From: a virus
Taxonomy: Duplodnaviria > Caudoviricetes
Strand: one strand, 5' to 3'
Length of the DNA stretch: 57,045 bases
Virus record (IMG/VR): IMGVR_UViG_3300020187_000040
Span: 1-57,045 of that record
The notes under the pieces were generated by a model, which saw only the letters and a list, made by a program, of their open reading frames with translations, did no database searches and was not told where the DNA came from. Shown here piece after piece: positions 1-40,534 of this stretch; the stretch's first letter is position 1, and each line of letters begins with the position of its first letter. Both the position numbers and the translations under genes were made by a program.

Positions 1-371
1 CCATCACCATCTGTATCGGTTCCACTTGCACGGTTCTCATTGTCTGGAAAGTTGTCGTCCTGATTTGCGACTCCATCACCATCACTGTCTGCAAGCGGTC
101 CATCTGTGTTGTCGGTATCGAACTCGTTGTCTATACCATCACCATCTGTATCGGTTCCACTTGCACGGTTCTCATTGTCTGGAAAGTTGTCGTCCTGATT
201 TGCGACTCCATCACCATCACTGTCTGCAAGCGGTCCATCTGTGTTGTCGGTATCGAACTCGTCGTCTATACCATCACCATCTGTATCGGTTCCACTTGCA
301 CGGTTCTCATTGTCTGGAAAGTTGTCGTTCTGATTAATCACTCCATCACCATCACTGTCTCCAAGTGGACC
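1..371. repeat. 135-bp coding tandem repeat (45-aa unit with two DxDGDG motifs), about 2.7 copies visible
   Basis: ccatcaccatctgtatcggttccacttgcacgg starts at 1, 136 and 271. The units are nearly identical and the last diverges near 330-371. Confidence 0.95.
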
Positions 372-770: not shown

Positions 771-780
771 GACCAATATA

Positions 781-16475: not shown

Positions 16476-18398
16476 TTATACTACTGGACGTTTTTCTTTG
16501 TAGGTGTGATCTTCTGGCAATAAATCTACAAAACCCCACTTGTGAGCTAAATACCCTTGAGTTCTGAATATTTCACTATCAGGAATAAAGCCACGAATAA
16601 CCACATTCTCCGCTATGAATCCATTGATAGTAGCTTCCATTTCATTCATAACTGAACCAATGGAAAAAGCTTCTACTTGATTGAGTCCTAAAGAACCTTC
16701 AATCATTACAGATCTTCCATTTATATCTAAATATGAATTATCTCCATCAATTAAAACTGTTATTATAAATTCTTCTACTCTAATAGTGTCTGGGCTAGAC
16801 GAAGCACTCTGATAGCTTTCTTTTATTCCTCCGTCAACAATATCATCTCCTTTGCTTTTTATTGACCCAGTTTCTTCTAGTATTCCATCCGGCCTTCTGG
16901 TTTGAGTCGATACTTTTATATTGTTTGTATCTAATCTCTCTATCAGAAGCCTATCAAATTCTTGCTGGAAATCAACACCCAGTGTATCCACCAACACAGC
17001 CCGCTTATCCATATCCTTAAACTGACCAGCTATAAAGACATAATAAGGTTCTCCCCTGTTTATATTAATATCTGTAGTAGTTAAAATACTTTTACCATAA
17101 AAATTAATAGCAGGTTTTTTATTAAATATATATTGAGTGAACCTTGGATCAAAACCCCCGCTTGAAGATTCTAATACGGCATCATTGGGACCCTTGCTCC
17201 TCCATCCCTTTACAGCATACCCATCTAGATTTAGATAGTTTTTATCTAAAGCATCATTCCATAAGGTTGGTCTCAAAAACGAAGGGCTCCACATTGCTTC
17301 GGTAAAATTGCTATTTGTAAAATCTTTAGAGTGAGGTAGTTTTCCCCTTTTATTATAATAAGATTTATACTGAAGATTTACAGTCAATCTTCCATCTACA
17401 GAAGATGAAACAGATTCTCCAATAAGCCTAGCTTGCTCTATAGTATAATATTGAATTGGATCCCCAAAGCAGTCATTAATCTTTATAGCAATATCTTCTA
17501 CAGTGGGTGTGAACATATACTTTCTAAGGCTTTGATATTTGTATTCATCTACTTCAAGGGTAAACGAAGTGTCTGTAATGATTGGCCAATTAACATCGAC
17601 CTGAGCAGCATATGCTGACCCAACAACATATATTGGCTCTATGCCTACATTAATTGAATGGTTAAATGCCACAACTCTATCTGTCTCTGAGCCTGCACAT
17701 TTTATGCTTATCGACCCTTGGTCGGGAACTCTTATTTCTGGGAAAGGATTGTCGCCCTTAGCATTATACTCTGGTTTGTTATAATATGAATCTTCCAGTA
17801 TATAAGCAAATCCATTTTCATCGAGTACGGAAAATTGATCGTTTTCTTTGTCAACGAAATTCGGGGAACCACCTATGTCCCCAAACACCCTTATACTTGT
17901 CGATGTTGACGGAACCTGGCCTATTGCACATGACACCGTATGGCTAGTAATGTAACCACTATGGAACCCAAAATACTCATGGCCATGGTGCAAGCTTCCA
18001 GTAAAGGGAGTGTCGCCCAAAAATTGTATAAAAAAATCTTCACTTACTAGTGTTGAATTTATTGAGAAATTGCCTTCTAGTGGGGCATTTAATACCGCCA
18101 TTGATTTGGGATTAGGACACCTCCTAGGTTTGTCTTCAGGGCAACTAAGAACATCTTCTTGCAATAAATCAAAAAAACCATGCTCTTGAATCACGAAGCC
18201 GTAGCAACTATCTTCTGGTTTATTTTCAATTTCTATTTTAGGTTCTGGTGGATAATAATCTTCTCCAACTAACCCCCAGCCTAATACATTAATTGGCTTT
18301 TCTTGTATAGAGTATGAGCCCTCAACACTCTGGATGCCAGACATTTGAGTTCCATTAATAAAAAATTTCTGCTCGTGAGCTAAGAATGCTTGCTTCAT
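16476..18398 (-). CDS. Tail-tube-fold tail-tip protein fused to a C-terminal LamG/ConA-like domain
   Basis: 640 aa, overlaps the TMP stop. GIQSVEGSYSIQEKPINVLG and GYITSHTVSCAIGQVPSTS match tube motifs. WSPSFL..TLWNDA...GYLAHKW...LPEDHTYK. Confidence 0.6.
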   Translation of the reverse strand: MKQAFLAHEQKFFINGTQMSGIQSVEGSYSIQEKPINVLGWGLVGEDYYPPEPKIEIENKPEDSCYGFVIQEHGFFDLLQEDVLSCPEDKPRRCPNPKSMAVLNAPLEGNFSINSTLVSEDFFIQFLGDTPFTGSLHHGHEYFGFHSGYITSHTVSCAIGQVPSTSTSIRVFGDIGGSPNFVDKENDQFSVLDENGFAYILEDSYYNKPEYNAKGDNPFPEIRVPDQGSISIKCAGSETDRVVAFNHSINVGIEPIYVVGSAYAAQVDVNWPIITDTSFTLEVDEYKYQSLRKYMFTPTVEDIAIKINDCFGDPIQYYTIEQARLIGESVSSSVDGRLTVNLQYKSYYNKRGKLPHSKDFTNSNFTEAMWSPSFLRPTLWNDALDKNYLNLDGYAVKGWRSKGPNDAVLESSSGGFDPRFTQYIFNKKPAINFYGKSILTTTDININRGEPYYVFIAGQFKDMDKRAVLVDTLGVDFQQEFDRLLIERLDTNNIKVSTQTRRPDGILEETGSIKSKGDDIVDGGIKESYQSASSSPDTIRVEEFIITVLIDGDNSYLDINGRSVMIEGSLGLNQVEAFSIGSVMNEMEATINGFIAENVVIRGFIPDSEIFRTQGYLAHKWGFVDLLPEDHTYKEKRPVV

Positions 18399-21300
18399 CC
18401 GCTAAGCTCTCCACCTATTCGCTTCTCCTCTCGAATAACTTCGAGTACCTTTGTCTTGATCTTCATGGCAAGTTGTTGTTCTTGCTCGTATGTTCCTTGT
18501 GTCCCTTCGGTGGAAACCTTTTCATTTCCGGATTTGTCAATTGTTACATTGACATTTATATTGTTTGTTACTTCTGTATTTTGATTTGTCGCAGCAGTTT
18601 CTGTTTGGTTCGCTTGCGTTCCTTCTAGTAGAGAGCTGATCCTGTTCTCTACTACAGGGGCAGGTTTTGCTCCTGATGTTGTCTGTGGGGTAGAAATGGA
18701 AGAGCTAGGAGAGCTTGCTGTACCCACTATGCCTCCCTTATAGTACCCTTTCTCTGCCTTACGGAATCCGTCTGGATTTTGCATTGCAAACCTCATCATG
18801 TTTGGATTGTCGCGAAGCAACTTATCTGTAGAGCTTCTTCTTATGATAAAATCCCCTTCGCTTAGTCCAACTGGGCCCACATTGTCCACACCTCCCGGTC
18901 CGTCAATGATAGGAATTGATCCAGTGCGATTCATTTTATTTAAATTGTCATAGCCTATACGCCTTGCAATTGGTGCTGGTATAAAAGATTCTCCTGCAGT
19001 CAACATGGCTGGAATTTCTCCACCGGAAAATACTTCTAATGGTTTGCCCCTGTCTATCCCTGTGCCGGGCCTGGTGGGATCTGACCACATTTCCATTTTA
19101 CCCATTTGAGTGCTATTTATCTTGTTTTGCAAATCTTGAGCGGTAGCGCCTCTAAAATTAGGATTATTTGCTGCTGTCTTTTTCTGAGCAATATGCCAGC
19201 TTCCATACTTCTTTCCACCCCTGAGTCTAAACTCGAAATTACTCATTTCATTGCCTTTTGCATTGGATGCAAAATCGCTAGAATACATTTTGCCATTATA
19301 CTCTAGTGGATTCCCAGACTCTATACTTTTTGCTACATCTTTATAATTAACATCGTGCAATCCAGCTTTTCTTGCGGCTTTAAATGCTTCAGAGTGTTTC
19401 CCTAATCCACTGTGGCCAAGAGCTACATTTTTTCCTTTTTCTATAAGCGAATTGATCGGTCCTTTGGCTACTTCAAGGGCCTGCGAGACCGCAAAAGATG
19501 CCACGGTTCCTACAATCGATCCAATCCTAGACATTCTTTCACTAACTTTTCTATTTTTCTGAGCCACACGATATGAAGCTACATCCAATAAATGCCCTCG
19601 ATACTCTTCCATAACTGGATCTTTAGCTAGAAGCTTCCCGCTTGATCTAGGGTCTCCTCTTGAAATTGAAAGTGTGGAATCCAAGTTCAAATTCTTAAAC
19701 TTGTTCATGTCAAATTCGGGCGGCTTTTCTTTATCTAAATCCTTGTTTTGCATTTTCTTGGCGACATACCTCGAAGCTTCCTGCATCGCAAGTGCCTGAA
19801 CTAGTCCACTCGCTCCAGCTTTAACTCTTTGTGCAGTCCCGCCCTCTTCAAAGTGTTGCAACATGCCGCCATCTTTTAATGCTTTTGCAGCCTTTTTAGG
19901 TACTACAAATTCGCCCGCAGTAAGCATGGCCGGAACTTTATCGACCCCGGGTTCGCCCTCAACAAATCCACCCTTTGCAAATTTTTGTATTTTACCGCCG
20001 AAGAAATGTTCAGGCATGTAACCATGCCTTGGTCCGTTTGGCACCGGTATAGCCTCAAGGGCATATGTTAATTTTTGTCCAAATTGTTCGACAGTGCCAA
20101 CTACAGAATTAAGACTCCGAGACATTCCGGTTGCAGCCTTGTCTATATTTTCATATCCAAAATCTCGCACATTAGACTCGTACTGAGGAGTGTTATTCAT
20201 TTTTGCTTGAATCTGAGCAATCGCAGGTTCCTGTGTATTCTGATATCCATGGTATGTGGTTGGGACATCAGGCACTTCTTGGTTTTGTCTGTTAACTTGA
20301 TTATTAGCATCCTCTGCAGCTTGCCTATCTTTGGCGGCTTTCACCATGGCTGCAGTTCTTTCTGCGGCTTCTTTTCCTAGTTTCACAGCTTGTTCTTCGG
20401 TTGCTGCTGATTGAATTTCAGCGGCTCTTTTTGTGTTTGGATCTGAGAGCGAGACATTATTAGGGTTCGCTCCTGTTTTTGTCACACCAATATCTGCCCT
20501 GCTCGCAGCTTGCTCTCCAACTATTCTTTGCTGATCCTCTACAGACATTCTTAGTGCATCAAGCGAGCCAATCAGCTGAGTATTTGCATCAATTAAATGA
20601 TTATTGGATCCAGCTATTTTCTCGGCCTCAGAAAGTGCATTCTCCCCAGTAAATGCAAATGTTAAATTTTTAATAATCTGATCGATGTTGTGTTCCATCA
20701 TACGGTCAAGCAAAACATCCGCCAATCCTAAACCAAAGTCAGACCATGCCTCTTTGGCACTCTTTGCTCCACTTCCGATATCTTTAAAGAGTTGCTTCAT
20801 GCCGCTTCGGGTTTGATCTAGTCCTATGTCAACTAAATCAGCCCCAAGATTTTTGGCGGCCACATCCATCTCTGCAATTTTCGTACGCATTCTATCAAAT
20901 GCACGCGATCCTTTTTGTAATTGTTTGTTTGTTTCTTCTAGCGACTGAGAGAAGGCCAGGGCATCTTCTGGGCTGCCAGTTATCGTTGCCCTCATGGCGG
21001 CTTCTCTTGTTCCTCTAATTCCAGTGGCCCTTTCTGTTGCAATATCCGAACCAACACTCAATCTTAATTCTTGCTCGCTTACCGCCGCTTTTCTTATCGC
21101 ATTCTCTAACCCGATTAATTTATTAGAAGATTCTTGCAATTCATTAGCTTGCTGTAGTAATCTTCCTTGTTCACCCATTGCACTTAATACTAATGCTTTT
21201 TCGGCATTAATTAAAGCAGACGACTGAGCAGAAGTAATTTCTTCTTGAATTTGTAAATCTGCTTGTTTTTTTAGCTCTTCAGATCCTGCTAACAATTTTA

Positions 21301-24300
21301 ATTTAGTAAGATTATTTCTGGCGGTTGTTTCTAGGGTAGTGGTCTCTTCTTTTATTTGTGACCCAATTAATGCTTCACGAGTTATATTGTAGCTTAAATA
21401 TTCATTTCGGAAAGCTGCATCTTTGGCGGCTGCACCGGCAGAAATAACTTCGGTTTGCATTTTAGCTCGTTGAATAATCTTAAACTCTTCAGTATCCCGA
21501 AGTATATTTTCTTGAACTTGTAATTGCTTGAGAGATAATAGTGCAGCTTCTGCATCTGTACGGTTTTTATTTATTTGTGTTTCGTAGGCTTTGTCATCAA
21601 GGACGCCGCTCTCCATGATCTTTTTAAGGCTATCTTTTCTAAAATGATTAATGACAGCCAGAGTGTCAACTTCGCCCTGTAAGTTTTTAACCATGGATTC
21701 TGCGGGGCTCTTTTGCTCAGCAAAAATCATAGCCAGTTCCCTAGCTCCCTTAACTGTTTTTTGTTTTATTAAATTTAAAGCCTTTTCGCTTTCTAATCCA
21801 GCCCTTGCTACTTTAGCAGTTGTTTCAGCTGTTTGCTTAGATCTTCTAAGACTATCACTAGTTTTCTTGGCTACCTCTATGTCTTCTGCCTTCATAGTAG
21901 TAAGCTCCATATGATGTTTTGCCAAAAGCACAGACATTGCTAAAATTGAATTTTGATTATCTCCATATTTTGCGGTAAGCTTATTTATAATTTCTTGATT
22001 ATCTGTATGATCTTTAACCTCTTTCCCTAATTCCTTAAAGAATGTATTTAGATCTTGAATTTGGCCTTTATCTAATCCGCCCAATGAATCGCTAACTTCG
22101 GCAATCATCTGAGGATTTAATCCTTTTTGAATTGCATTTTTGAGTTCAGCAACGCCAGCTTGAGCATCTTTAGCATCGCTATTAAATCGAGAGCTTAAAG
22201 CGGTAATGTTTACATATTTTTTACGAATAGCCTCAAGGCTACTTAATGCATCTTGATTAGCTTTTAATTTATCTGATTCAAGTTTTTCAGTTATTGCTGC
22301 ACCATCTAGGGCTGCTTTATTCTGTATAGCGGCAGAGCGACTAATCATTTCATATTCACTCTGTAAATCAATCAAGCTACTATTAATCTTTCTTTTAGAC
22401 TGAGTAATAATATTATCTAATTTATTTTGATGAATTATTTCTTCTCTTTGTTTTTTATAGTTAGCTACTATTTTAGTATATTCAGACAGTAGTCCAGCCT
22501 TAGCTTGTTGGGCTTTTTTGGTATCCTCGCGCTCTCTTTCTGATACTTTTATTTGTTCATTTAATGCATTAATGAAAAACTTTTTCTTTTCTGCAGTTTC
22601 TAAATCTAAAGACTCTAGTCCGGAAATTCCTTGAATATTTCCTGCTGCTAGGTTTTTCTTGATCTGTCCTTTTTTCTCAGGACCAAGGTCTACCGCTATT
22701 TCTGCAATTTTATTCGCTAAAAAGTTGAGTTCTTCTTTTAAGTCATCGCTAGGAGCGCGTCCTTCAAACATTCCGAATTCGTCTCCTGTTTTCTTACCGA
22801 AATCTTTAATGGCTGTAGCGAAAGCCATTTGAACCGCTTCTTGTTTTGCTATTTTCTCGAGCACACGGACCAATGCTTCTGTGCCTTTAACTTCTCCAGA
22901 CTTGGCCTTGTTAACTTCATTTATTAAATCCTTATTCTTGAGATTGGCCGTGTCGACTTGTGCAAGTTTAGACTGTAAACTAGTCTGCTGCTTGATTTCT
23001 TTTATTCTTAGACTAATTAGTTCCTTTTCTTGCTTTAATGTTCTGCCCGCCCCAATAATTTCGAGTTTAGACATTTTGTCCCTAGTCGAGAAAAGACCGT
23101 TTGCCGCATCTAGAGCAGACTGTGTTTTCTCTGCAGATTCAGCAAGTTTCTCTAATTTTTCCGCAGCTCTATCGGAATTAGATTTGAAGTGTTCAAATAT
23201 ATCTACATCAAAGTATTTTAAAGTTTCATTTAATATAGTGAATCCGGTAATAAGTTGGCCTACTACAGGAGCAAACCTCATCAAGCCTTTACCGAATTTC
23301 ATTACAGAGTTGATCGCCTTGCCTATTCCAGCGCCTTTTCCTCGACCCGCCCCACCAGCACCCGCTCCACCAGTAATCTTTCCTAACATGCCACCTATTC
23401 CCACTTGATCCTTTGGCGCTATATCTGCCATGTCTGTGAGTTGATCAGCAAATTCTTTAGTGGCAATCATGGTAGACATTACAGTACTAACGCCCATACC
23501 AAGTTCAGCTATCTTTTTTGTTGTCTCTCCCCCCGTTTCTGCAAACTCCTGCAAAAATCCATTTGCCATACTAATACTTGATTGAAGGTAAAACAGTTTT
23601 TGCAGCCCCTCCATATTTGAATGGGTATGCTTATCTACCTCTTCCTTATTATCCTTTAAGGAATTAGTGCTCGATTCTACTTGATTTTCAAAATCTTTAA
23701 ACTTCTGACCCGCCGGGCCTCCAGCCACACCACCGACTACAAAGTTAGGCATAAACCCTCCAGCTGCACCATGACTCTTAGGATCTAGCCCCATGCTTTT
23801 TGCCCGCCTGATTCCTTGCCCAACCCCAGCAGGCTCATCTCTCGTATTAGTAACAGCAAGACCCATTGGATTTCCGGGGCCTTTTAATTGATTACTTTGT
23901 TCAATTTTTATATTGCTTGCTGGAATTCCGGCGGCCTTTTCTCTCTCTACCGCTTCTGCTAATGGGTCTGCAAAGTTAGGAACAAAACCACCAGATAATA
24001 TTCTATAATCTTCTGGATATTTTTTTAAATCCTGAAGAGTTTTTCTGTCGTAAAATTTAGACAAAAATTGAAGCATAGTCTGTCCGGGCTTGAACTGAGT
24101 CTCACCTCCTGCAAACTCCTTTAAATATTCTTGGTGCATCAAGTTTTTTGACTTGATTGTTTTCTTCTTAAAAGGAGTGGTATTATCAAAAGGAATTATA
24201 TCTGCAAAGTTTGGAATGAGGCCGCTTGATGCATCACTAAAGTAACCTAAACTTCTGCCGCTGTTATACTTTTCAACCTTGTCTTTAAGGTTTTTAATAA

Positions 24301-27300
24301 AAATACCATTTAAATCAATCGTGCCCTTTCTGTCTTGAATCGCAGATCTTGACGCATAATGTTTAGCACCCTCCCTCCCCATAGATGGGCCGCCAAGACC
24401 CTTTAGGTCTTTACTTGCCTTTGCTTTAAACCCTTGAGTTTGTTTATTTATTTTTGCAATCTCTTGTGGGTTGGTGTCCGTATGGTTTTGTAAATAATTA
24501 GCAAAATCTGTTAAAGTAAAATCATCTCCCCTAAGACCCCAGCCATTTGGACCTTTAGACCATTTGATAAATTTTTGCCAGTAATGAAAGTTTGGGACGA
24601 AACCATCGTGGGATAATCCATCGCTAAGTTCCTCTGAGGAAGGAATTGCAGACCCTCGCCCTAGACCATACAAAATTTGTTTTTGCTTGTCTGGAACCTT
24701 AAGGTAATCCCTCATATATGAAAAGTTTATATTAGTATACGGATCAATTTCTCTCAGTACCCCTGGCAATCTTCCGCGAATATCTACAGGCCTTATAGAT
24801 TCACTAACAAATTTAATGCCACGCCTTGAAGAATTACCTATCATATCCGCAAAAGGAAATGCCCCAAAATCTATCGTGGAAGGCCTTCTTCCTGGCCGAC
24901 TTGTAATGTCCATTATTTTATTATCAACTTGCTTTTTAGTTTCTATGGAATTGGCTAATTTTTTAAATATACTTTCTGCCCCATGACCTTTGGGATTACT
25001 CGTGAATATAGGATCCCCATGATCGTATACCCCATCAATATCAAATAACTCTTTGTTTCTTTTATTAAAGTATGATGGGTCAATATTTTCAATATCAATC
25101 GCTTGAGGGCCTTTCATGAAAGGCCTATCAAAGGCTTGTTCTGAAATTAGTTTCTCAAAGGCATCTCCTCTGATATATTGAGCGGGTCTACCTTTTCCTT
25201 CACGTTTGTTTACGCCACCAGGAAGTCCCTTAACTAAATTAACATACTCATTATATTTTTTATCGCCTAAAATTGTTTTTGCACTTTTCCCCATACTTTG
25301 ATTTGGGTTTGCGGAGGCATTCAGGATTTGGTTATTTTCATCAAACTCATTGATTAAACTTGCCCTACTGTCATATGATCCATTTTTTAAATTATTTAAT
25401 ATTTCATGATAATCATATTTTGCTGACTTACCGCTTTTACTTTCCAAGCTGCGAAAAAAGCTCCACATTTCATCAAATTTTTCTTTTAATTGATTTTTTG
25501 CCTCCTTATTGTAGGGATTGGTATGGTTAATAGGAGGGAAGATATTGTCTGGCCTTTTTACTCCTATCTTTTCAAAGTCTGCACGCTCTTTTATCGAGGC
25601 TTTTTTTCTAACAAATTCCCGATAAATCGACTTCCAATCTTTTTTAGAAAAACTAGGCACAAATCCCCCACTCATGCCCCACATATCCACATCAGCTTCA
25701 GAAAATTCTCCACCCTTGCCTGAACCCTTGATCCCCAGCTTACCTGCTAATTTTTGTGCTTCTTTTAAATTCTTTCCTTGTAATCCTTTTCCTCCGCTTA
25801 TTTTATTTGCAGACATCCAATCGCTTAATTCGCGATCAGAAGCCATCCTTAAACTTTTTGATATTATATTTGCCGCACTTAATTTTCCGCTCTTTACCTC
25901 ATGAGCCCCACCAGGACCAATGATATCTACAGGATAACTCTGTACTCCTTTTTTGGTTTTTGGGTCGTATGTTAATTGATTCCCGCCAACTTCTTTATTT
26001 AATAAATTAAGAGCCTTTCTTTCTGCAAATTGATCCTGACTAAGCTTGCCTTGCCCTCTTCGGCCCGGAACTGGAGGTCTTACATTGAACATTCTTTCAA
26101 TTGAATGAACACCGGCCCCAGATAATGCACTGAATGCTTCAAATAATGTTTCTTTGCCTGATATCTTTTGCTTTCCGCTATCTGAAGACATAATAATATC
26201 TTTTAGACTTGCGGACATTTTCAAGGGCTGGCCGCTAGCAAACAGCTTTTCAATCTCTTTATAATTCACTCCAGTTGCGCGGGCTATATCCATTGAGCCC
26301 CCAAACAGTCCAAGCCTGGACTTATCCATGACCAACTTGTTGCCCATAACTGAAGCAAAATTAGGAACAAATCCTCCGCTCGCATATGGGTTAAAGCCGT
26401 GTTTTTCTTGAAATGCTTTTTGATATACCCCACCCGCCCTACTACTCTCTGGTGGCATAATCGCAGGTTGCTTCATACCCGGAAATTGCTTAACTGTTTC
26501 AGCCTTATTGTAAACTATATCTCCCATCCCCTGTACATGCATCGAATCAACAGGTCCCGCACTGTATCCACCCATTGCAGCCCCTCTTCTTTCTTTCCTC
26601 CTTGATGCTTCTGGAACCAGCCCTCCTGATGCCCCAAGGTCTGGGGATATTCCTTTTGCGACCAAAGGCCCAGCTAGAGACTGAGCAATTCTTCTTTGTT
26701 GCTCCATAGCACTTGTCTGAGCTTCTATGATACCCAGCATGAATTTTTCTTGAGCTAATCGATCTCCCTCTAAATTGTTTAAAGATTGCTGAATATTATG
26801 GTTCCTAGATAATGCATCCACAATAGAATCTTCCATCTGTTTTATTCTATCTTTTTGGCTAACTACTCCAAGTACATCTTTCATTGAGTTTGAAGCAAAC
26901 TTGGCGATATTCATAAATAATTTTATAAATATAGCACCAAATGCGATTGCCGCAGGACCCGATACGACATTTCCAATGCCCCTAACTAACCCTTTACCAA
27001 AAGTACTACCCTCTTCTTCTCCTCCTCCTAGGGCTCCTCGTATCTCTTGGATTCTTTCGTTTACAAACTCAAGAGCGTCTGCCATTTGCGGGCCGATAGC
27101 TAGTTGCCCTATAGTTGCTGCTAATTCTTGAAGGTTTGTGCCGGCTTGACTCGCTAATGCAGAAACCGTCTTGTTTAATAATTCATTTTTCCTGGCAGCT
27201 TCTCCGGATGCATCTGCAGATATTTTAGTGGCTTGAGCATGTAAACTATTTTCTTTTGAGAGATCTTTTAATGTCGCCCTAAACACATTGGCTTGAAATA

Positions 27301-28264
27301 TTCCTGCGGAAAATTGCACAACATTAGATTGTTGCGATTGAGTTAATTTATCAAAGGTTTTCGCCATATTAAGCAAAACTTTATCTGCAGGCAAAATTGC
27401 CCCGCTCAAGTCTCTTACAACTATTCCCATTTGCTCTAATTGATTTAAGGCTTCTGGTCGTTGTATTCTGGTGAAAATAGTTTTCAAACTGTTACCAATA
27501 ACCGCGCCACCTCTAGCTGTAGTTTGTTGAAGAGCCGCAACAATACCAACAAGGCTATCAAACTCGACACCAGCATCAATTGCAACAGCACCGGCGCGCT
27601 GTAAGGCATTAATTAAATCCTCAGAACTAACTGCAAAGTTAACATCTACCGCTGATAATTTATCAATAATATCAGTCGTAGTCAATCCGGCATCCCCGAA
27701 TGCATTAACCGCCGCTGTTAATCCAGCTACAGCATCTGCAGCCTTCAGGCTCGTTAACCTGGTGAGTATCAAAGCATCATTGGTTCGCTTTATGACTTCT
27801 TCTGTGGATAAACCTTGCCTGGAAAACTCTAGTGCAGCTTCCGCCGCAACATTAAAACCCTGAGCAGTATTCCTCGCTGCATCAAACAGTCCCTCCCCGA
27901 AGGATCTTATCTGGGAGTTTGATAAGCTTAATACCACATTAATATCAGCAAGGGTTTTCTCGAATGCTACAGCCTCTGTAACCAAACTTTTGAAAGCACT
28001 GCTTATCCCGTCAAGGATCGCAACCGATGCACCAAAAGCTATAACACGAGCATTTGAAGCTTCTAAAGATTTCGTAAACTCATTCGCAGATGCGTTGATT
28101 CTACCAAGTGGCTGTGTAAAGCTTTTTTCATTAACACTAAACCCTACATTCTTGCCGCTAATTTTATTAACAACCTTGTTGATTTCATTGGTGGCACGAT
28201 CCAGGCTACGCTTAACACCCTGGGTGTTAACGCTTAGATCAATATCTGCTCTTATTCCTGCCAT
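18395..28264 (-). CDS. Tail tape measure protein (TP901-like core) with internal cassette array and C-terminal PAMLTAGE repeats
   Basis: 3289 aa. N-terminal FEKTLADIN...EFSRQG...GGAVIGNSLKTIFTRI core, long Ala/Glu/Lys helical tracts, hydrophobic segments, and DKVPAMLTAGEFVV near the C-terminus. Located between tube and tail-tip genes. Confidence 0.92.
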   Translation of the reverse strand: MAGIRADIDLSVNTQGVKRSLDRATNEINKVVNKISGKNVGFSVNEKSFTQPLGRINASANEFTKSLEASNARVIAFGASVAILDGISSAFKSLVTEAVAFEKTLADINVVLSLSNSQIRSFGEGLFDAARNTAQGFNVAAEAALEFSRQGLSTEEVIKRTNDALILTRLTSLKAADAVAGLTAAVNAFGDAGLTTTDIIDKLSAVDVNFAVSSEDLINALQRAGAVAIDAGVEFDSLVGIVAALQQTTARGGAVIGNSLKTIFTRIQRPEALNQLEQMGIVVRDLSGAILPADKVLLNMAKTFDKLTQSQQSNVVQFSAGIFQANVFRATLKDLSKENSLHAQATKISADASGEAARKNELLNKTVSALASQAGTNLQELAATIGQLAIGPQMADALEFVNERIQEIRGALGGGEEEGSTFGKGLVRGIGNVVSGPAAIAFGAIFIKLFMNIAKFASNSMKDVLGVVSQKDRIKQMEDSIVDALSRNHNIQQSLNNLEGDRLAQEKFMLGIIEAQTSAMEQQRRIAQSLAGPLVAKGISPDLGASGGLVPEASRRKERRGAAMGGYSAGPVDSMHVQGMGDIVYNKAETVKQFPGMKQPAIMPPESSRAGGVYQKAFQEKHGFNPYASGGFVPNFASVMGNKLVMDKSRLGLFGGSMDIARATGVNYKEIEKLFASGQPLKMSASLKDIIMSSDSGKQKISGKETLFEAFSALSGAGVHSIERMFNVRPPVPGRRGQGKLSQDQFAERKALNLLNKEVGGNQLTYDPKTKKGVQSYPVDIIGPGGAHEVKSGKLSAANIISKSLRMASDRELSDWMSANKISGGKGLQGKNLKEAQKLAGKLGIKGSGKGGEFSEADVDMWGMSGGFVPSFSKKDWKSIYREFVRKKASIKERADFEKIGVKRPDNIFPPINHTNPYNKEAKNQLKEKFDEMWSFFRSLESKSGKSAKYDYHEILNNLKNGSYDSRASLINEFDENNQILNASANPNQSMGKSAKTILGDKKYNEYVNLVKGLPGGVNKREGKGRPAQYIRGDAFEKLISEQAFDRPFMKGPQAIDIENIDPSYFNKRNKELFDIDGVYDHGDPIFTSNPKGHGAESIFKKLANSIETKKQVDNKIMDITSRPGRRPSTIDFGAFPFADMIGNSSRRGIKFVSESIRPVDIRGRLPGVLREIDPYTNINFSYMRDYLKVPDKQKQILYGLGRGSAIPSSEELSDGLSHDGFVPNFHYWQKFIKWSKGPNGWGLRGDDFTLTDFANYLQNHTDTNPQEIAKINKQTQGFKAKASKDLKGLGGPSMGREGAKHYASRSAIQDRKGTIDLNGIFIKNLKDKVEKYNSGRSLGYFSDASSGLIPNFADIIPFDNTTPFKKKTIKSKNLMHQEYLKEFAGGETQFKPGQTMLQFLSKFYDRKTLQDLKKYPEDYRILSGGFVPNFADPLAEAVEREKAAGIPASNIKIEQSNQLKGPGNPMGLAVTNTRDEPAGVGQGIRRAKSMGLDPKSHGAAGGFMPNFVVGGVAGGPAGQKFKDFENQVESSTNSLKDNKEEVDKHTHSNMEGLQKLFYLQSSISMANGFLQEFAETGGETTKKIAELGMGVSTVMSTMIATKEFADQLTDMADIAPKDQVGIGGMLGKITGGAGAGGAGRGKGAGIGKAINSVMKFGKGLMRFAPVVGQLITGFTILNETLKYFDVDIFEHFKSNSDRAAEKLEKLAESAEKTQSALDAANGLFSTRDKMSKLEIIGAGRTLKQEKELISLRIKEIKQQTSLQSKLAQVDTANLKNKDLINEVNKAKSGEVKGTEALVRVLEKIAKQEAVQMAFATAIKDFGKKTGDEFGMFEGRAPSDDLKEELNFLANKIAEIAVDLGPEKKGQIKKNLAAGNIQGISGLESLDLETAEKKKFFINALNEQIKVSEREREDTKKAQQAKAGLLSEYTKIVANYKKQREEIIHQNKLDNIITQSKRKINSSLIDLQSEYEMISRSAAIQNKAALDGAAITEKLESDKLKANQDALSSLEAIRKKYVNITALSSRFNSDAKDAQAGVAELKNAIQKGLNPQMIAEVSDSLGGLDKGQIQDLNTFFKELGKEVKDHTDNQEIINKLTAKYGDNQNSILAMSVLLAKHHMELTTMKAEDIEVAKKTSDSLRRSKQTAETTAKVARAGLESEKALNLIKQKTVKGARELAMIFAEQKSPAESMVKNLQGEVDTLAVINHFRKDSLKKIMESGVLDDKAYETQINKNRTDAEAALLSLKQLQVQENILRDTEEFKIIQRAKMQTEVISAGAAAKDAAFRNEYLSYNITREALIGSQIKEETTTLETTARNNLTKLKLLAGSEELKKQADLQIQEEITSAQSSALINAEKALVLSAMGEQGRLLQQANELQESSNKLIGLENAIRKAAVSEQELRLSVGSDIATERATGIRGTREAAMRATITGSPEDALAFSQSLEETNKQLQKGSRAFDRMRTKIAEMDVAAKNLGADLVDIGLDQTRSGMKQLFKDIGSGAKSAKEAWSDFGLGLADVLLDRMMEHNIDQIIKNLTFAFTGENALSEAEKIAGSNNHLIDANTQLIGSLDALRMSVEDQQRIVGEQAASRADIGVTKTGANPNNVSLSDPNTKRAAEIQSAATEEQAVKLGKEAAERTAAMVKAAKDRQAAEDANNQVNRQNQEVPDVPTTYHGYQNTQEPAIAQIQAKMNNTPQYESNVRDFGYENIDKAATGMSRSLNSVVGTVEQFGQKLTYALEAIPVPNGPRHGYMPEHFFGGKIQKFAKGGFVEGEPGVDKVPAMLTAGEFVVPKKAAKALKDGGMLQHFEEGGTAQRVKAGASGLVQALAMQEASRYVAKKMQNKDLDKEKPPEFDMNKFKNLNLDSTLSISRGDPRSSGKLLAKDPVMEEYRGHLLDVASYRVAQKNRKVSERMSRIGSIVGTVASFAVSQALEVAKGPINSLIEKGKNVALGHSGLGKHSEAFKAARKAGLHDVNYKDVAKSIESGNPLEYNGKMYSSDFASNAKGNEMSNFEFRLRGGKKYGSWHIAQKKTAANNPNFRGATAQDLQNKINSTQMGKMEMWSDPTRPGTGIDRGKPLEVFSGGEIPAMLTAGESFIPAPIARRIGYDNLNKMNRTGSIPIIDGPGGVDNVGPVGLSEGDFIIRRSSTDKLLRDNPNMMRFAMQNPDGFRKAEKGYYKGGIVGTASSPSSSISTPQTTSGAKPAPVVENRISSLLEGTQANQTETAATNQNTEVTNNINVNVTIDKSGNEKVSTEGTQGTYEQEQQLAMKIKTKVLEVIREEKRIGGELSG

Positions 28265-28332: not shown

Positions 28333-29727
28333 TTAATCCATGTTTATTATTTCCCTGTCATCGTCTGGGCCTCCGTGGCAAGTTGCTGGTTTATTATTGC
28401 CATATGTACCGCTAGCAAAAAGACCTTCCCTTGCACTCATTTCAAAAGAAAAATTACAATCAACCGTTCCGTAGTCCCCGATTCCTTGACTCAAAGAATA
28501 TCCATCCAGTCTAGCATTATCTATTCTGAATTTCATCGCTTTTTGTCTTTCATATTCTGGAAAGCAGTGAAACGAGCATTCATTGGTCAATTCGATCTCA
28601 ATTTCATACTCAGTGTCCCCGCAAAATATATCAATAAACCTACCACTTTCAAATGTGCTAGACAATAAAGACATGGACAATGTACCGAGCTGTGGGTACT
28701 TTAATTTACTAGCATACATATGCATAGACTCGAAGCCTTCAAGGTCTTCCCTCTCGAAAGGTATATTAACATTAAAAGATTGAATATTAGCAGAGCTTTC
28801 AAAACAAGAATCTCCATCAGATTCAGTATTTAGTGTTGGACCCCCTATATTTAAATTTTTTATTTTTAAATTTATTCCATGCGGGGGTATGGCAGTAGCT
28901 GCTGACTTGTATAGTTTTGGCCTAAAGGTAAGGGCGGGAAATCCTATTTTATCTAACGGTGTTCCTTTATTTATTAAATCTAGGGACGGGTTCCTAATTG
29001 CACCTATTTTTTGGTATTCTAAATCTTTATCTAACTGTATCTCACTTCCGTCTTGGAATAAAATAAAATCTACATCATCTTGATCTCCTTGCAATAATAA
29101 GTTGCCTAATATTTCTGTTATTTTTTCCCAGTAGAATCCTCCGCCCGCATCCATGCAGTCATAATTAAAATCGGAAGCCGTAAATGAAACCGAGGCTTTT
29201 GCTATATCTCCAACTGATGCCGAGAATGAATAGCTTGATATATAGCCATTACCTATACCTAGCACATTAGTGCCTTCTAAACCCAACTCTCTTTTATCGT
29301 ATGCAGTCAAATCATGCCCTTCGTCACCTAGAACAAAAAACATGGATTTATTTTCTTTTAAATTATTGTATATAGTTCCACTATCCTGTACATTTAAATT
29401 GTATGCAGCGCCCTCTTCGTCGTACTTTACACTGGGCCCTAATATATTCAAGCCCAATAGGCTTTCTTCGTAACCGTCTGTCAGCAAGTAATCAAAACTA
29501 ACATTTATTGAGCCATGTTTAACCATGGTTCTTGCGACATAATGATCGCTCCCAATTTGCTTGATATTTTCTCTATTAGTTTCTACTGAAAACTGAAAAG
29601 ATTGAAGCTTGTTAAAAAAACTGACTTCGGTTTTTGCGACATCATCCTCCCTGCTGCTATCAGAAACTGAATCCGCAAGGAAAAGCCCTACCGAATTGTA
29701 CCTGATAACATTTCTGGTTTTTGCCAT
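28333..29727 (-). CDS. Tail tube protein paralogue (minor)
   Basis: 464 aa, collinear similarity to 29791..31302: RNVIRYNS, LQSFQFSVETNRENIKQIG, GIGNGYISSYSFSASVG, IQSFNVNIPFEREDL, ARLDGYSLSQGIGD. Confidence 0.7.
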   Translation of the reverse strand: MAKTRNVIRYNSVGLFLADSVSDSSREDDVAKTEVSFFNKLQSFQFSVETNRENIKQIGSDHYVARTMVKHGSINVSFDYLLTDGYEESLLGLNILGPSVKYDEEGAAYNLNVQDSGTIYNNLKENKSMFFVLGDEGHDLTAYDKRELGLEGTNVLGIGNGYISSYSFSASVGDIAKASVSFTASDFNYDCMDAGGGFYWEKITEILGNLLLQGDQDDVDFILFQDGSEIQLDKDLEYQKIGAIRNPSLDLINKGTPLDKIGFPALTFRPKLYKSAATAIPPHGINLKIKNLNIGGPTLNTESDGDSCFESSANIQSFNVNIPFEREDLEGFESMHMYASKLKYPQLGTLSMSLLSSTFESGRFIDIFCGDTEYEIEIELTNECSFHCFPEYERQKAMKFRIDNARLDGYSLSQGIGDYGTVDCNFSFEMSAREGLFASGTYGNNKPATCHGGPDDDREIINMD

Positions 29728-29790: not shown

Positions 29791-31302
29791 TTATGCTCGA
29801 TATCCAAACAGGTATCCACTTATAGCATCTTCGGTGCTACCATTAAGCCCTGTCCATGCTGGGGGGAGTCCGTTGTTACCCTCGGTTGATTCTTTGCCGT
29901 ATAGAAACAATCCATTATGTAGGTCATCTGCTCCACCAATTTGAGTGGTAAATGTAAGGTCGACGGTTTTATTGTCACCAAGGCTGCTGCTGTAGTTTTC
30001 AGATTCTAAGCGAGCACCCTTAAGAGTAAATCCCATGGCTTTAGTTCCTTGCTTTACTGTGCAGTCGTCGCACTGAGGATCGTAGATGTCAAGTGAAACA
30101 TTATACTCTTCACAGGAGCATAGAAAGTCGATCAAGTTATCTTCTTTCATGTCCGCGACTAATGCAGAAACACTCATGGTTACGGTCAACGGAAGATCCA
30201 TCGCCTTAGAGAATCCAAATGTTGAGCCAAGTCTTTGAAGAGTAGTTCTTCCCATTGGAACAGAAATACTTGCGGACTGTACATGGGCACTTCCTACTAA
30301 AGGTTGGTTTTGAGCTCCAGATACTGCTTTGTGCATAAGGGATGCATTTTGTAAATTAACAACTACATCTCCTGGACGTAACGCTGCAACATCTTGTCCA
30401 CAACCTTCGTAACCACTTGTAGTTGCAGGAAGCGAATAAAGTCCAGTACATCCATTTGCGCCTTTAGCAACTCTGTTGCCTTGCGCATCTTTATCCCATG
30501 CATTACTTGTTTTTGAACCATCCTTCATGTCCATGGCGGGGACATCATTACCGGTAGTTCCCAGGTCGCTCTTGATGTTCATTCCTTCAACAGTTACACT
30601 GGCAGTCGGAATTGATCCTACAGATACATCTACGCTGTAGTCGGTTATATATCCATTACCAAGAGAGATTACGGACTTTCTGTCTTCTTTACCTTCTTCG
30701 TGTATATTAGTGTCTCCATTTACAGCATCTCTTGCTTCTGGAGTTGTTAGTATAAAGAAGTTATTTCCAGCTTGGTATAGTTCTGGAGATAATGCTCCAC
30801 TCAATGTATTAGTCTCACCATCTGTGACAAACTCGAGCAAGCGCTCGTTCCTACCATCCACTAAATAATAAGAAAAATCTAAATTAACAGTTGGTGACTC
30901 AACTACGATTGAGTCAAGACGAGCTGCATGACCAAATTGGTTAATGTCCTGACGATTAACGGTGAAACCATAATTCGCACTTTGAACACGTTCTAATTGC
31001 TGTATAATACTTCCATGGGCTTTTGCAAATGCAGGGTTATCTCCCTTAGCATTCCACTCTGGCCAGGCATCTCCTTCGGCCCATCCAGCCAATTGTCCAT
31101 TATTGGTCTTGGTTGGTGAATCTACTGTTCCACCAAATACTTGAGATGAGTCAACCGGAGGGGTTGCAAGTCCAAATGGACCGCTTCCTATTCCCTCAAT
31201 TGGGCTATCAGCTTTTGCTCCTGTAAAATGATACCCAGTGGAGTCGGGGCTAATAAATAACGCTTCTGATTGATAAATTACTCGATTTCTATGTACGGCC
31301 AT
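29791..31302 (-). CDS. Major tail tube protein
   Basis: 503 aa after the neck genes, with a strong AAGGAG RBS and its own upstream motif. Two beta-rich halves (RVQSANYGFTVNRQDINQFG / HVQSASISVPMGRTTLQRLG). Confidence 0.75.
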   Translation of the reverse strand: MAVHRNRVIYQSEALFISPDSTGYHFTGAKADSPIEGIGSGPFGLATPPVDSSQVFGGTVDSPTKTNNGQLAGWAEGDAWPEWNAKGDNPAFAKAHGSIIQQLERVQSANYGFTVNRQDINQFGHAARLDSIVVESPTVNLDFSYYLVDGRNERLLEFVTDGETNTLSGALSPELYQAGNNFFILTTPEARDAVNGDTNIHEEGKEDRKSVISLGNGYITDYSVDVSVGSIPTASVTVEGMNIKSDLGTTGNDVPAMDMKDGSKTSNAWDKDAQGNRVAKGANGCTGLYSLPATTSGYEGCGQDVAALRPGDVVVNLQNASLMHKAVSGAQNQPLVGSAHVQSASISVPMGRTTLQRLGSTFGFSKAMDLPLTVTMSVSALVADMKEDNLIDFLCSCEEYNVSLDIYDPQCDDCTVKQGTKAMGFTLKGARLESENYSSSLGDNKTVDLTFTTQIGGADDLHNGLFLYGKESTEGNNGLPPAWTGLNGSTEDAISGYLFGYRA

Positions 31303-38250: not shown

Positions 38251-38925
38251 TTAAAGATCAATTTTGATGATATAGTATGCTCCAGTGGAACCATCTCCAG
38301 CAAATTGGTCAGCTGATTGAGGATCGTAGACATCTCCACGGTTTCCTACTCCAAGACATTTTCCAACAACTGTGTTTCCACTGCCGCCTTCTGCTCGGAA
38401 CTTTCCTCCGGCCCCCAATGAGACTAAATCTCCCACTGAAGGCTCGTTGCCTGCAATGACTGCGCTTGCTGCGACTGTTATAATACCTTTAGTAAGTACT
38501 GGTACAACTTCGCCTGGAAGTACAGCTTGAAGCTCGAGTGCTTTTTGACGATAGTAAAGAAGTTTTTCTCCATTTTCGTCGAATGCTAAAGTTTGATTCA
38601 AGGTAACACCAAGAACAATGTCGGTTCCGCTTGCTACTTCAAATTTTGGAGCGGCTTCAGGGTTAACGTTACGTCCTACATGAGGGTAACCGGTTTCGCC
38701 AAGATAAGCATTAAGCTCTGTGGATCCCTGCCCGTCACTTCCGTAACCTGCTGGTTCTCCAGCTGCCCAACTGCCATCAGTAACCTTTACTAAGGTACCT
38801 GCATCGTGAGCTCCTGAAGCTGCGTGAGTAAAGCCACTTAAAGTAGCACCACTTACATCTAGTGAAAACAAATTCACTACGAAGTGTTCGTTGTATTGTC
38901 TGAATGGTAGTAGTCTATTAGCCAT
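38251..38925 (-). CDS. Capsid decoration/cement protein
   Basis: 224 aa, Gly/Ala-rich beta protein between scaffold and MCP. GEVVPVLTKG...VGDLVSLGAGGK...VVGKCL. Confidence 0.7.
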   Translation of the reverse strand: MANRLLPFRQYNEHFVVNLFSLDVSGATLSGFTHAASGAHDAGTLVKVTDGSWAAGEPAGYGSDGQGSTELNAYLGETGYPHVGRNVNPEAAPKFEVASGTDIVLGVTLNQTLAFDENGEKLLYYRQKALELQAVLPGEVVPVLTKGIITVAASAVIAGNEPSVGDLVSLGAGGKFRAEGGSGNTVVGKCLGVGNRGDVYDPQSADQFAGDGSTGAYYIIKIDL

Positions 38926-38941: not shown

Positions 38942-39661
38942 TTAGTATTGAATTTGTACACTGTCTTTAGAGAAAGATTTTTTAAACTTTTCCCTTAAAG
39001 AAATTTCTTCTTCGATTGATTCGCTATTATTATTTGCAACCGCTTCTTCTTCAGTTTCTGCGGATTCAATAACTTCTTCTGCGGCTGCCTCTGTTTCTTC
39101 AGGGGTTTCTACCTCAGTTTCGGTTTCGTTAGCGAGAGATGCAAGACGTTTTTGAACCTCTTCTTCAATCTTTTCATTAAAAATCTTTTCTTGCTCTTCT
39201 TTAAAAGCTTTTGTCTTATGTTTCCATACTACATTTAACTTTTCTTTGTATTGAGCGTAAGCCTCTTCGGATGAATCAAGGTCTTTAAGCTCTGAAGCCA
39301 AAAGAACTCTGTCTTCATCTTCTAACAAGAATTCACTATCAATTTCGGTCATTCTTTCGGTGAACCGCTCAGATTCTTGTTGGGCGGCCACTTCAGCTTT
39401 GATAGTAGCAAGCTCTTCACTAACTTCGGAAAGCTTTACTTTCATATCTTCAAGATCTTGATCGGAAACTTCTTGAGCTTTAGCAAGCTCTTCTTTTTCC
39501 TTTTGAAGGTCTTCTTTTTCTTGCTGCCATTTTTCGCTCTTGTCGATAATAGCATCATGAAATACTTTAGTAATATTAGCAATAGCTTCTTCAGACAATT
39601 TCTTGGAAGAAGCTTGAGCTTCGAGGGTTTCGGTTACTTGATTTAGAATTTCTTTGTCCAT
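38942..39661 (-). CDS. Probable nested in-frame scaffolding protein (239 aa)
   Basis: In-frame ATG at 39661 (MDKEILNQV) begins the coiled coil and is preceded by the extended promoter-like motif at 39687-39726. Confidence 0.55.
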   Translation of the reverse strand: MDKEILNQVTETLEAQASSKKLSEEAIANITKVFHDAIIDKSEKWQQEKEDLQKEKEELAKAQEVSDQDLEDMKVKLSEVSEELATIKAEVAAQQESERFTERMTEIDSEFLLEDEDRVLLASELKDLDSSEEAYAQYKEKLNVVWKHKTKAFKEEQEKIFNEKIEEEVQKRLASLANETETEVETPEETEAAAEEVIESAETEEEAVANNNSESIEEEISLREKFKKSFSKDSVQIQY

Positions 39662-40534
39662 AATGTGCTTTAGTTTATGATTCTTGTTAATGATTACATT
39701 GCCTTTATGTAAATGGGAACTTTTTTCTTGTAAAAAATTATTTTTTATTTTCAATACTTCTATCGATGCCTCAGTTTCTTTATCGTCTTCATTTTCTGGT
39801 TCATCTTCTGTTAATAAAACCACACCCTTGACATCAGCCGCAGGGTTAGATGTAAAGCCTATACCTATCGGGTAAATATCTCCAACTATTAATCTATGAA
39901 CTTCTTCGCCTTTGTCGGTTCTGCCATTACCCCCATATGCTTTAAGAAATTTTGAATATTCGTCTCTTTGCTCTCTTGGGATAATTGTTGCCTCTTCTAA
40001 ATTTTCACTACCTACCGCAATAACATAATCGTTAAATCCAATTTCCCAGCTTGCAGATACGGTCTGGTAAAGCTCGCTTTCCTTGTCTGTTGATTTCTCG
40101 ACCAGTTCCGCAAACTCTGGGTTAACTGTTTTATATACTACGGCAGAGAGAGCTATATTAAATGGCTTTTCAGTTAATGAAGCATCTTCAGTCGCCAAAA
40201 CTTCGTTGCTTCCATAAGCTGACAATGATGCACCTACAATATGGCCCACTACCTTTTGTTTTTGATGTTCAATATTCGTGGGTTTATGAATAAAATAATC
40301 CTTGATAGCCAATGCCGTGGCGGTATCTATACCGTCGCCGTTTTTATTAAACCTGTTAGCTACAGCCGCATTAAAAGCAACCCCCACCAAGTCTATATTC
40401 TTTTCAAAGTCAATATTTTCTGGAGCCAGCTCTTTCAGTGAATCAAGTGATGCAGAACTTATTAGTTGATCACCATCGTTATGTTGTATAGCTATACTCT
40501 CTTCAAAACTAGTTATATATTTATATGGAAGCAT
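38942..40534 (-). CDS. Prohead protease fused to a C-terminal scaffold
   Basis: 530 aa. NKNGD, HKPTNIEH...VVGHI, SASWE and GIGFTSNPA protease motifs, followed by an acidic coiled coil. Confidence 0.8.
   Translation of the reverse strand: MLPYKYITSFEESIAIQHNDGDQLISSASLDSLKELAPENIDFEKNIDLVGVAFNAAVANRFNKNGDGIDTATALAIKDYFIHKPTNIEHQKQKVVGHIVGASLSAYGSNEVLATEDASLTEKPFNIALSAVVYKTVNPEFAELVEKSTDKESELYQTVSASWEIGFNDYVIAVGSENLEEATIIPREQRDEYSKFLKAYGGNGRTDKGEEVHRLIVGDIYPIGIGFTSNPAADVKGVVLLTEDEPENEDDKETEASIEVLKIKNNFLQEKSSHLHKGNVIINKNHKLKHIMDKEILNQVTETLEAQASSKKLSEEAIANITKVFHDAIIDKSEKWQQEKEDLQKEKEELAKAQEVSDQDLEDMKVKLSEVSEELATIKAEVAAQQESERFTERMTEIDSEFLLEDEDRVLLASELKDLDSSEEAYAQYKEKLNVVWKHKTKAFKEEQEKIFNEKIEEEVQKRLASLANETETEVETPEETEAAAEEVIESAETEEEAVANNNSESIEEEISLREKFKKSFSKDSVQIQY
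39687..39726 (-). promoter_or_regulatory. Intragenic extended late promoter/operator (second copy)
   Basis: Plus strand ttaatgattacattgcctttatgtaaatgggaactttttt, matching 31341-31381. Confidence 0.6.

Follow-up and report, generated by a model that had tools for sequence, protein, structure and literature searches.

A motif-delimited, polymorphic array of basic modules in the giant tape measure proteins of an uncultured phage clade

The viral DNA analyzed here (hereafter the window; IMG/VR virus record IMGVR_UViG_3300020187_000040, 57,045 bp in full, CheckV completeness estimate 39%) carries a phage tail module whose longest gene, located between the tube-side and the distal tail genes, encodes a giant tape measure protein (TMP; Table 1). 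The product is a TMP as judged from its PF10145 domain (83.9 bits against a cut-off of 33.2), the sole Pfam match on the whole protein, from eight PHROG tape-measure families that match its N-terminal ~400 amino acids (aa; best E 4e-44), and from the conserved synteny of the tail module, in which the flanking genes up1, up2 and dn1 keep their order in 60, 66 and 43 of 82 related loci. TMPs are usually seen as rulers that also help the DNA cross the cell envelope. Residues ~546-1508 of this TMP form a polymorphic array of unrelated basic modules that are joined at a short recurring peptide, and in the two stretches that were modelled the modules are predicted to fold as separate domains.

Six copies of the strict pattern G[FL][VIM]P[NS]F occur in the window TMP, compared with a mean of 0.001 and a maximum of 1 in 2000 shuffles of the protein, and a further, degenerate copy (copy 0) precedes them; in relatives with a minimal array (see below) copy 0 is intact as GFIPNF. 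A sequence-only reading of the window had listed these seven peptides (the first as SGGLVP, 26612-26629), the inter-motif spacings of 77, 228, 346, 119, 70 and 69 aa, and a hydrophobic segment on either side of the array, and all of these were found at the residues and coordinates given. It had also described the motif as a repeat at the protein level with varied codons, and at the nucleotide level the copies indeed have a mean identity of 63% over 27 nucleotides (nt) and a longest shared exact word of 11 nt, while across related loci each motif residue is encoded by several synonymous codons. Because the codons vary, the motif is a peptide repeat and not a DNA repeat, and selection acts on the peptide. 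Within the six reading frames of the window, the motif core [hydrophobic][VIMLF]PN[FY] was found in no long open reading frame (ORF) other than the TMP.

Table 1. Features of the tape measure gene and its array, listed from the N-terminus of the protein (nt, nucleotide; pLDDT, predicted local distance difference test score; other labels as in the text)
Feature	Position	Strand	Remark
Tape measure protein (TMP) gene	18395..28264	-	single open frame of 3289 aa without a stop
PhageMin_Tail (PF10145) domain, aa 130-316	27317..27877	-	Pfam
Upstream hydrophobic segment, aa 438-450	26915..26953	-	highest Kyte-Doolittle 19-residue window of the TMP (1.9)
Motif copy 0, SGGLVPEA, aa 546-553	26606..26629	-	degenerate; fails the strict pattern
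Unit 4, aa 554-628	26381..26605	-	small alpha/beta domain predicted by AlphaFold; first of the array in most relatives
Motif 1, SGGFVPNF, aa 629-636	26357..26380	-	segment holding the motif has pLDDT <50
Cassette family 0, aa 637-864	25673..26356	-	in 112 of 120 relatives; ~243 aa in the clade
Motif 2, SGGFVPSF, aa 865-872	25649..25672	-	pattern match
Cassette family 3, aa 873-1218	24611..25648	-	swapped slot; clustering and nucleotide comparison
Motif 3, HDGFVPNF, aa 1219-1226	24587..24610	-	right edge of the swap; L002, L003 and L011 homologous again in nt from aa 1221 (G)
Cassette family 8, aa 1227-1345	24230..24586	-	no Pfam or PHROGs family match
Motif 4, SSGLIPNF, aa 1346-1353	24206..24229	-	pattern match
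Cassette family 2, aa 1354-1423	23996..24205	-	in 68 relatives
Motif 5, SGGFVPNF, aa 1424-1431	23972..23995	-	pattern match
Unit 1, aa 1432-1500	23765..23971	-	terminal; in 96 of 120 relatives (77 aa), last in 88
Motif 6, AGGFMPNF, aa 1501-1508	23741..23764	-	array end; pattern match
Downstream hydrophobic segment, aa 1664-1678	23231..23275	-	hydropathy

The modules between the motif copies follow the order 4-0-3-8-2-1, the numbers being those of the families described below. That these segments are mutually unrelated and rich in Lys and Arg, as the sequence-only reading had it, was borne out: the best blastp match between any two of the six has an E value of 0.035 (in a six-sequence database), which is not significant; Lys plus Arg account for 15.3% of the array residues; and the isoelectric point (pI) of each of the six cassettes lies between 8.4 and 9.8.

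Relatives were collected by a word-indexed search with aa 540-1540 as the query, in which 826 proteins of 1808-5756 aa reached E <= 1e-3 among 7998 scored candidates. The comparison set comprises the best 120 of these 826 (P0002 is the window's own protein), the 120 distinct proteins compared being P0001 and P0003-P0121. Among the matches listed, only P0003-P0007 cover the whole array region, the coverage of the others being 8-70%. In a full HMMER scan, 954 proteins out of 1.84 billion representatives of 50% identity clusters reached E <= 1e-3; relatives are encoded on at least 540 IMG/VR stretches, from which the analysis retained 80 loci. A tblastn search of aa 522-1538 against 50,697 records of deposited phage genomes gave no match at E <= 1e-3, and the eight matches of a species-genome collection to the unit-4 alignment A3 are all in metagenome-assembled genome (MAG) bins, labelled Halobacteriovorax (2), Flavobacteriales/Flavobacteriaceae (3), Neomarinimicrobiota (1) and Proteobacteria (2). 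These results mark the clade as uncultured. Aquatic diderm bacteria are its probable hosts, the MAG labels pointing to marine Flavobacteriia, Bdellovibrionota and Proteobacteria, with the reservation that the bins may merely contain phage contigs.

The motif is a constant of this clade. In relaxed form it is present in 4-15 copies in each of the 120 giant TMPs, the first copy lying near aa 540-650 in the full-length proteins. A logo of 886 sites reads [A/L]-S-x-G-[L47/F42]-[V50/I46]-P-N94-[F86/Y12]-A50 (values in %; S at position -2, 52%), in which the G and the P are imposed by the collection pattern, L/F sum to 89%, V/I to 96%, N to 94% and F/Y to 98%, the residue before the G is mostly G, K, S or Q (19, 17, 16 and 8%), and nothing is conserved beyond the motif. 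An independent check was made on 209 unit-4 ends located through a separate anchor, where the G was in register at 184 ends, the P and the N at 181 each, and the F/Y at 179.

Cutting the 120 proteins at their motifs produced 760 internal segments of at least 20 aa (median 169 aa; 5th-95th percentile 73-383), which single-linkage clustering (blastp E < 1e-5, coverage >= 0.6) grouped into 121 families. The proteins contain 3-14 cassettes each and display 103 distinct architectures. Cassettes between the core units vary in number, identity and order, and 51 family pairs were seen in both orders; family 2, for example, precedes family 0 in 21 relatives and follows it in 46. From these sequence comparisons, a core of unit 4, family 0 or its counterpart, and unit 1 is kept, the other modules are gained, lost, replaced and reordered, and it is at the motif that the modules are joined. 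The orthologues thus have conserved flanks and a variable number and identity of inter-motif domains, which supports the cassette-array reading. Collinear inter-motif sequences, which the sequence-only reading had named as the observation that would speak against it, are confined to P0003-P0007 (66-93% identity); elsewhere the arrays vary. The basic character of the window modules is likewise general, since among 739 cassettes 90% have a pI above 8.5 (median 9.66) and only 3% a pI below 6, across unrelated families. This shared property is compatible with nucleic-acid targets as well as with an electronegative tube lumen.

Units 4 and 1 (~70-90 aa) are conserved in the clade, and nothing marks either as an enzyme. 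Unit 4 (~85 aa in relatives) has 28 invariant columns in 27 sequences over a 103-aa stretch that includes both flanking motif copies. The two units were considered as possible paralogues and rejected as such, hhalign having matched only 15 C-terminal columns with the motif. The minimal array, found at 31 distinct loci in TMPs of ~1800-3200 aa (most of them ~1900-2600 aa), consists of unit 4, one cassette of ~230-330 aa that aligns with family 0, unit 1, and four motifs. In the motif-poor relatives L024 and L082, units 4, 0 and 1 are all missing at the array position. The TMP of L082 (8927-15043) has PNF-like strings (…VPNFG…, …LPNFA…) around a different insert of ~385 aa at aa ~550-950, and since these strings occur without units 4, 0 and 1, the junction peptide may predate the core units.

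Exchange of cassettes at the motif, which the sequence-only reading had proposed, is seen at nucleotide resolution in close relatives of the window phage. In L002 and L003, the proteins of neighbouring genes are 96-98% identical to those of the window, and the TMP DNA is 90% identical over aa 1-881; over aa 882-1220 no nt homology is detectable, and from aa 1221 onwards, exactly at the Gly of motif 3, the sequences match again at 82-88% nt identity. The cassettes in this slot, family 3 in the window and its replacement in L002, share 20% amino-acid identity. P0010/L011 carries family 6 in place of family 3, and nt homology to L011 likewise resumes at aa 1221. Cassettes that come and go between near-identical phages would also be expected if they were selfish insertions, that is, intein-like or homing modules removed post-translationally to leave an ordinary TMP, and such an origin would suit the presence of n + 1 motif copies for n cassettes and the invariant Asn near each junction. 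We regard this as extremely improbable, since no Hint, intein or homing-endonuclease Pfam family was found in the window TMP or in 28 relatives (see below), and the Asn is preceded by Pro and followed by F/Y in 98% of sites, instead of being preceded by His and followed by Cys, Ser or Thr as in inteins. Nor does the motif represent a recent target-site duplication, given that its DNA is not conserved. Motifs of three further types (prepilin-peptidase, double-glycine leader and sortase) were rejected as well: the Gly is not followed by the residues that they require, and neither a hydrophobic helix nor a sorting signal comes after the motif.

Two AlphaFold models were built, one of window aa 536-880 (58 aligned sequences, mean pLDDT 65) and one of the minimal array of L067 (31 sequences, mean pLDDT 67). 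In both, every motif lies in or beside a segment with pLDDT <50, and the domains in between have block means of 62-90. Unit 4 is predicted to form a helix, four strands and a helix (block means 84-90 over residues 21-90 of the window model), the middle cassette of L067 has block means mostly near 80, and unit 1 of L067 is predicted as a small helix/strand domain (62-73). The modelled cassettes are alpha/beta domains, unlike the long helices of the C-terminal two thirds of the TMP. Foldseek searches of the PDB with both models gave no match at E <= 0.001, wide VIA-align searches gave best Z scores of 3.4 and 4.1, which are values of common arrangements, and a BFVD structure search gave no match. 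For the first ~50 residues of the middle cassette, several winged-helix/helix-turn-helix (HTH) chains were returned at Z 3.3-3.5 and were not counted.

Searches for function gave little for the window cassettes themselves: sub-threshold noise against Pfam and PHROGs at lax thresholds, noise against NCBIfam for unit 4 and families 0, 3 and 1, and no usable match in the ESM Atlas for families 0 and 3; for family 0, no Pfam, PHROG or structural match was found either. A Pfam scan of the clade covered 28 whole relatives chosen as a greedy cover of families (P0120 dropped as too long, P0016 added) and 27 locus cassette segments. The nuclease domain SNase (PF00565, cut-off 21 bits) is predicted in family 6 of P0019 (27.1 bits), P0063 (25.2), P0118 (27.1), P0020 (25.1) and L005 (27.9); the family 6 members of L011 and L014 gave no SNase match, and the L011 cassette gave no match against PDB sequences. 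The HTH of CI-type repressors (PF07022) scores above its cut-off in family 3 of P0016, P0020 and L004, and the window's family 3 has an alignment gap over part of the HTH region. No other Pfam domain was found in the cassettes of these relatives and segments. The SNase and CI-type HTH domains, in two of the 121 families, are the only pointers to an effector role for the cassettes. No stand-alone homologue of family 3 of 194-620 aa was found, and five short candidates for stand-alone cassettes (P0133, P0163, P0170, P0201 and P0231) were rejected because they look like contig-end fragments of TMPs.

A possible nuclease is hinted at by the conserved residues of family 0 and its counterpart in the minimal arrays, where a D and a K (aa 780 and 791 of the window TMP) are invariant in all 58 of the 58 sequences. 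The window has E-V-K at the invariant K, the E being nearly invariant in 30 whole TMPs, and the minimal forms have a G-x-x-F-E helix in the middle cassette. By eye and without a profile match, the resulting pattern E...D...(D/E)-x-K resembles that of restriction-endonuclease-like, or PD-(D/E)xK, nucleases. No match to the alpha-beta-beta-beta-alpha-beta core fold of these enzymes was obtained with Foldseek or VIA-align (best Z 4.1; pLDDT <50 in this part of the window model), and a profile of alignment A2 against PDB sequences gave nothing below E 0.14.

These data bear on whether the array merely occupies space. As a structural filler or registration element it would add ruler length or form an internal tail or neck structure, with the motif as a hinge keeping three TMP chains in register and with cassette turnover as neutral drift plus recombination. 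Array length (396-2577 aa) indeed tracks the full length of the TMP (r = 0.83), for most cassettes no enzyme family can be recognised, and a uniformly basic composition could suit an electronegative tube lumen rather than a target. However, other tape measures have periodic repeats, whereas the motif spacing here is irregular (13-2228 aa, median 169); the modelled cassettes are alpha/beta domains and not long helices; a nuclease and an HTH domain recognised by Pfam are unlikely as filler; and the retention of three core units and of a 9-residue motif at ~87-94% per position argues for a function. On balance, a filler role appears distinctly improbable.

The explanation that we consider best, and hold tentatively as somewhat short of an even chance, is that the module array is a payload and the motif a junction signal read in trans. 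The TMPs of other phages generally stay in the tail until infection begins and are then driven out into the envelope of the host. On this general behaviour, the array would be carried and ejected with the rest of the protein and would reach the host before the DNA or together with it, forming a variable payload. Since a nuclease and an HTH are the only domains recognised, some of the modules at least would probably act on DNA. After ejection the junction signal would be read, and proteolytic processing at the motif would free the modules in the way that viral polyproteins and MARTX toxins are processed. Proteolytic release is favoured among the possible roles because one short peptide at every junction of unrelated domains, placed in linkers, is the signature of polyprotein sites, and a single conserved motif at every domain junction in predicted unstructured linkers is what was found here. 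Cleavage as the specific role of the motif, argued by this analogy, is possible though doubtful. Rather unlikely in its entirety is the furthest-reaching version, a self-contained injection magazine cut at every S-x-G-[L/F]-[V/I]-P-N-F-A junction to release a reshuffled set of basic, DNA-directed effectors before the genome enters. In that version the cutter would be either a universal cassette acting as a processing enzyme of a new type or a conserved envelope protease of the diderm hosts, and the effectors would be nucleases, DNA binders, and anti-defence or takeover factors; the system would then be a phage counterpart of the MARTX and polymorphic toxins.

Alternatively, the motif could be a docking motif that stays uncut and is bound by a chaperone or another partner in charge of the unfolded modules, such as a phage tail-assembly chaperone or the tube lumen during assembly, or a SurA- or FkpA-like periplasmic chaperone of the host at the exit, which would keep the modules soluble or ratchet the TMP out. 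Placement of the motifs in low-confidence linkers with small residues upstream is typical of linear motifs, and since each cassette has its motif at the C-terminal end, the motif would emerge first if the TMP exits C-terminus first, as in other siphophages. The HK97 TMP reportedly needs the periplasmic chaperone FkpA, and all eight genome-collection matches are in MAG lineages taken as diderm, with a periplasm, although these bins do not establish the host, as they may simply contain phage contigs. The motif core [F/L][V/I]PN[F/Y] also agrees at 5 of 7 positions with WEYIPNV, a phage-display peptide reported to bind the P1 domain of SurA with a Kd of 1-14 uM and an Ar-X-Ar-X-Pro preference (PMC11401910), the common part being hydrophobic-[I/V]-P-N-hydrophobic. 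The first aromatic of that client motif is, however, absent here, the aligned residue being G, K, S or Q, and the comparison started from this one peptide, which is among many that could look similar. One would moreover expect a chaperone site along the whole TMP, whereas in the window protein and its relatives the motif is confined to the array, and in neither single-chain model does a motif dock on a neighbouring domain (units 4, X or 1). A complex prediction of E. coli SurA (21-428, as a stand-in for the host protein) with unit 4 and its motifs scored 0.00 against a mark of 0.32, was run without controls, and counts neither way. We consider docking unlikely as the role of the motif.

Breakpoint statistics speak for joins at the motif: 66% of 300 blastp alignment ends inside the window array lie within 12 aa of a motif (14% for uniform placement), and 91% of the left and 86% of the right edges of 344 nt-homology gaps between loci lie within 10 aa of one. 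These counts are inflated, as the motif is a conserved island, many of the locus pairs are related, and a motif is part of how the ends of units 4 and 1 are defined; the swap seen in L002 and L003 is independent of these caveats. Several observations weigh against the payload and junction-signal explanation. The two models are of middling quality and, of the window array, cover unit 4 and family 0, besides the L067 array. For the universal cassettes, no sequence or structural relative was found, with models that are multi-domain and of that same quality. The five variable cassettes of the window have no recognisable function in family searches, and the payload argument rests on two of the 121 families, whose domains were recognised in relatives and are not detected in the window cassettes; the window array has no family 6 cassette. 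Pfam-type scans found no protease family in the window TMP, the 28 relatives or the 38 window ORFs. Ejection of the array region into the cell is taken from other phages as general knowledge, and the correlation of array length with TMP length is what a simple tail-length filler would give. Of the sequence-only reading as a whole, the motif-delimited cassette array and its exchange stand, and the protease that it had assigned to 38942..40534 finds no support: this 530-aa ORF (38942-40534, minus strand), located between a likely portal gene (40578-42587) and a scaffold-like gene (38251-38925), has no match in Pfam, PHROGs, NCBIfam or PDB sequences.

This TMP belongs to the PF10145 family and to neither the MARTX nor the polymorphic toxins; each of these groups offers a partial parallel. 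With TMPs of the TP901 family it shares the N-terminal PF10145 domain, the hydrophobic segments, the long helical C-terminal ruler and the position in the tail module. Extra globular domains that would act on the host at ejection are also reported among those TMPs, as in mycobacteriophage TM4, whose TMP is said to carry Rpf/peptidase motifs, and in T5 Pb2, where a peptidase reportedly resides in the TMP. Those proteins, however, have one or two fixed, mostly cell-wall-directed domains, whereas the present clade has the many exchangeable modules and architectures described above, with one conserved peptide at the end of each module and with DNA-directed domains as the only ones recognised. MARTX toxins are arrays of effector domains that are released by an internal cysteine protease, CPD, which cleaves after Leu; as here, conserved translocation regions flank a strain-variable array of unrelated domains with unstructured linkers, mosaic among close relatives. 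Unlike in MARTX, where the CPD is recognisable, no protease domain was found, and the carrier is a phage tail protein rather than a secreted toxin.

In the polymorphic toxins CdiA (VENN), Rhs and MafB, a short conserved peptide is reported to border the conserved delivery region against the recombined variable domains (PMC3482391, PMC9424206), and the C-terminal region of CdiA is described as released by proteolysis in the periplasm of the target cell (PMC9424206). A conserved peptide at the border of domain exchange is likewise found in the present TMPs. The polymorphic toxins, in contrast, have one toxin domain at the C-terminus with an immunity gene behind it, while here there are several internal cassettes, most of them not recognisable as toxins. 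In the window TMP no variable toxin domain is followed by a cognate immunity gene, and since all cassettes lie inside a single open frame of 3289 codons, there is no place for an immunity ORF after each of them. The TMP-related, Sle1-type effectors of actinobacterial contractile injection systems, which are packaged in the tube and ejected, also combine a TMP-like scaffold with an exchangeable functional domain (PMC13277306); they differ in having one functional domain per protein and in belonging to a bacterial injection system, and their abstract reports no repeated junction motif. No account of multi-cassette TMP arrays, or of this motif in TMPs, was found in the literature searched, from which subscription journals were largely missing.

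In this large uncultured clade, the middle of a ruler protein has been turned into a hypervariable array whose junction peptide is fixed. Provided that the modules are delivered and act in the host, they would constitute a new route by which long-tailed phages inject proteins ahead of the genome, and a large reservoir of unannotated effector folds, with 121 families in 120 proteins and only two of them recognisable. Such modules can be mined with the junction peptide as a simple search handle, and the peptide also offers a ready design by which foreign proteins could be loaded into phage tails. Should the role of the array be purely structural, it would still have to be explained how alpha/beta domains fit into the tail tube and leave it.

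A second conserved repeat is present in the C-terminal region of the TMP, in two copies at 19910-19936 and 18989-19015 (minus strand; aa 2777-2785 and 3084-3092), with the form G-G-x-V-x-G-x-x-G-x-D-x-[V/I]-P-A-M-L-T-x-G-E-x-[V/I]; it is conserved in 30 aligned giant TMPs and in the minimal form L067. Two paralogous genes (28333-29727 and 29791-31302, minus strand; 464 and 503 aa) immediately precede the TMP gene; both match one single gene of ~380 aa in many related loci, and they may represent a duplicated tail-tube gene. Family searches gave no match for their products, and the gap that separates them from the TMP gene contains no small chaperone gene. Downstream of the TMP gene, 9685-15273 (minus strand) encodes a tail protein of 1862 aa with a Phage_min_tail domain (PF05939) at aa 775-892 that is conserved in 34 related loci. 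Divergent InlB B-repeats (Flg_new_2, PF18998; Listeria-Bacteroides repeat type) occur in two further ORFs (3-776, minus strand, and 50418-51626, plus strand) and may be a hint on the host or on adhesion. Finally, an ERCC4-type nuclease-like ORF adjoins the large terminase gene in a minus-strand stretch (44504-45625, 47183-47959 and 48940-49659), and the same stretch also has a sigma-70 region-2-like ORF and a PhoH-like ATPase.

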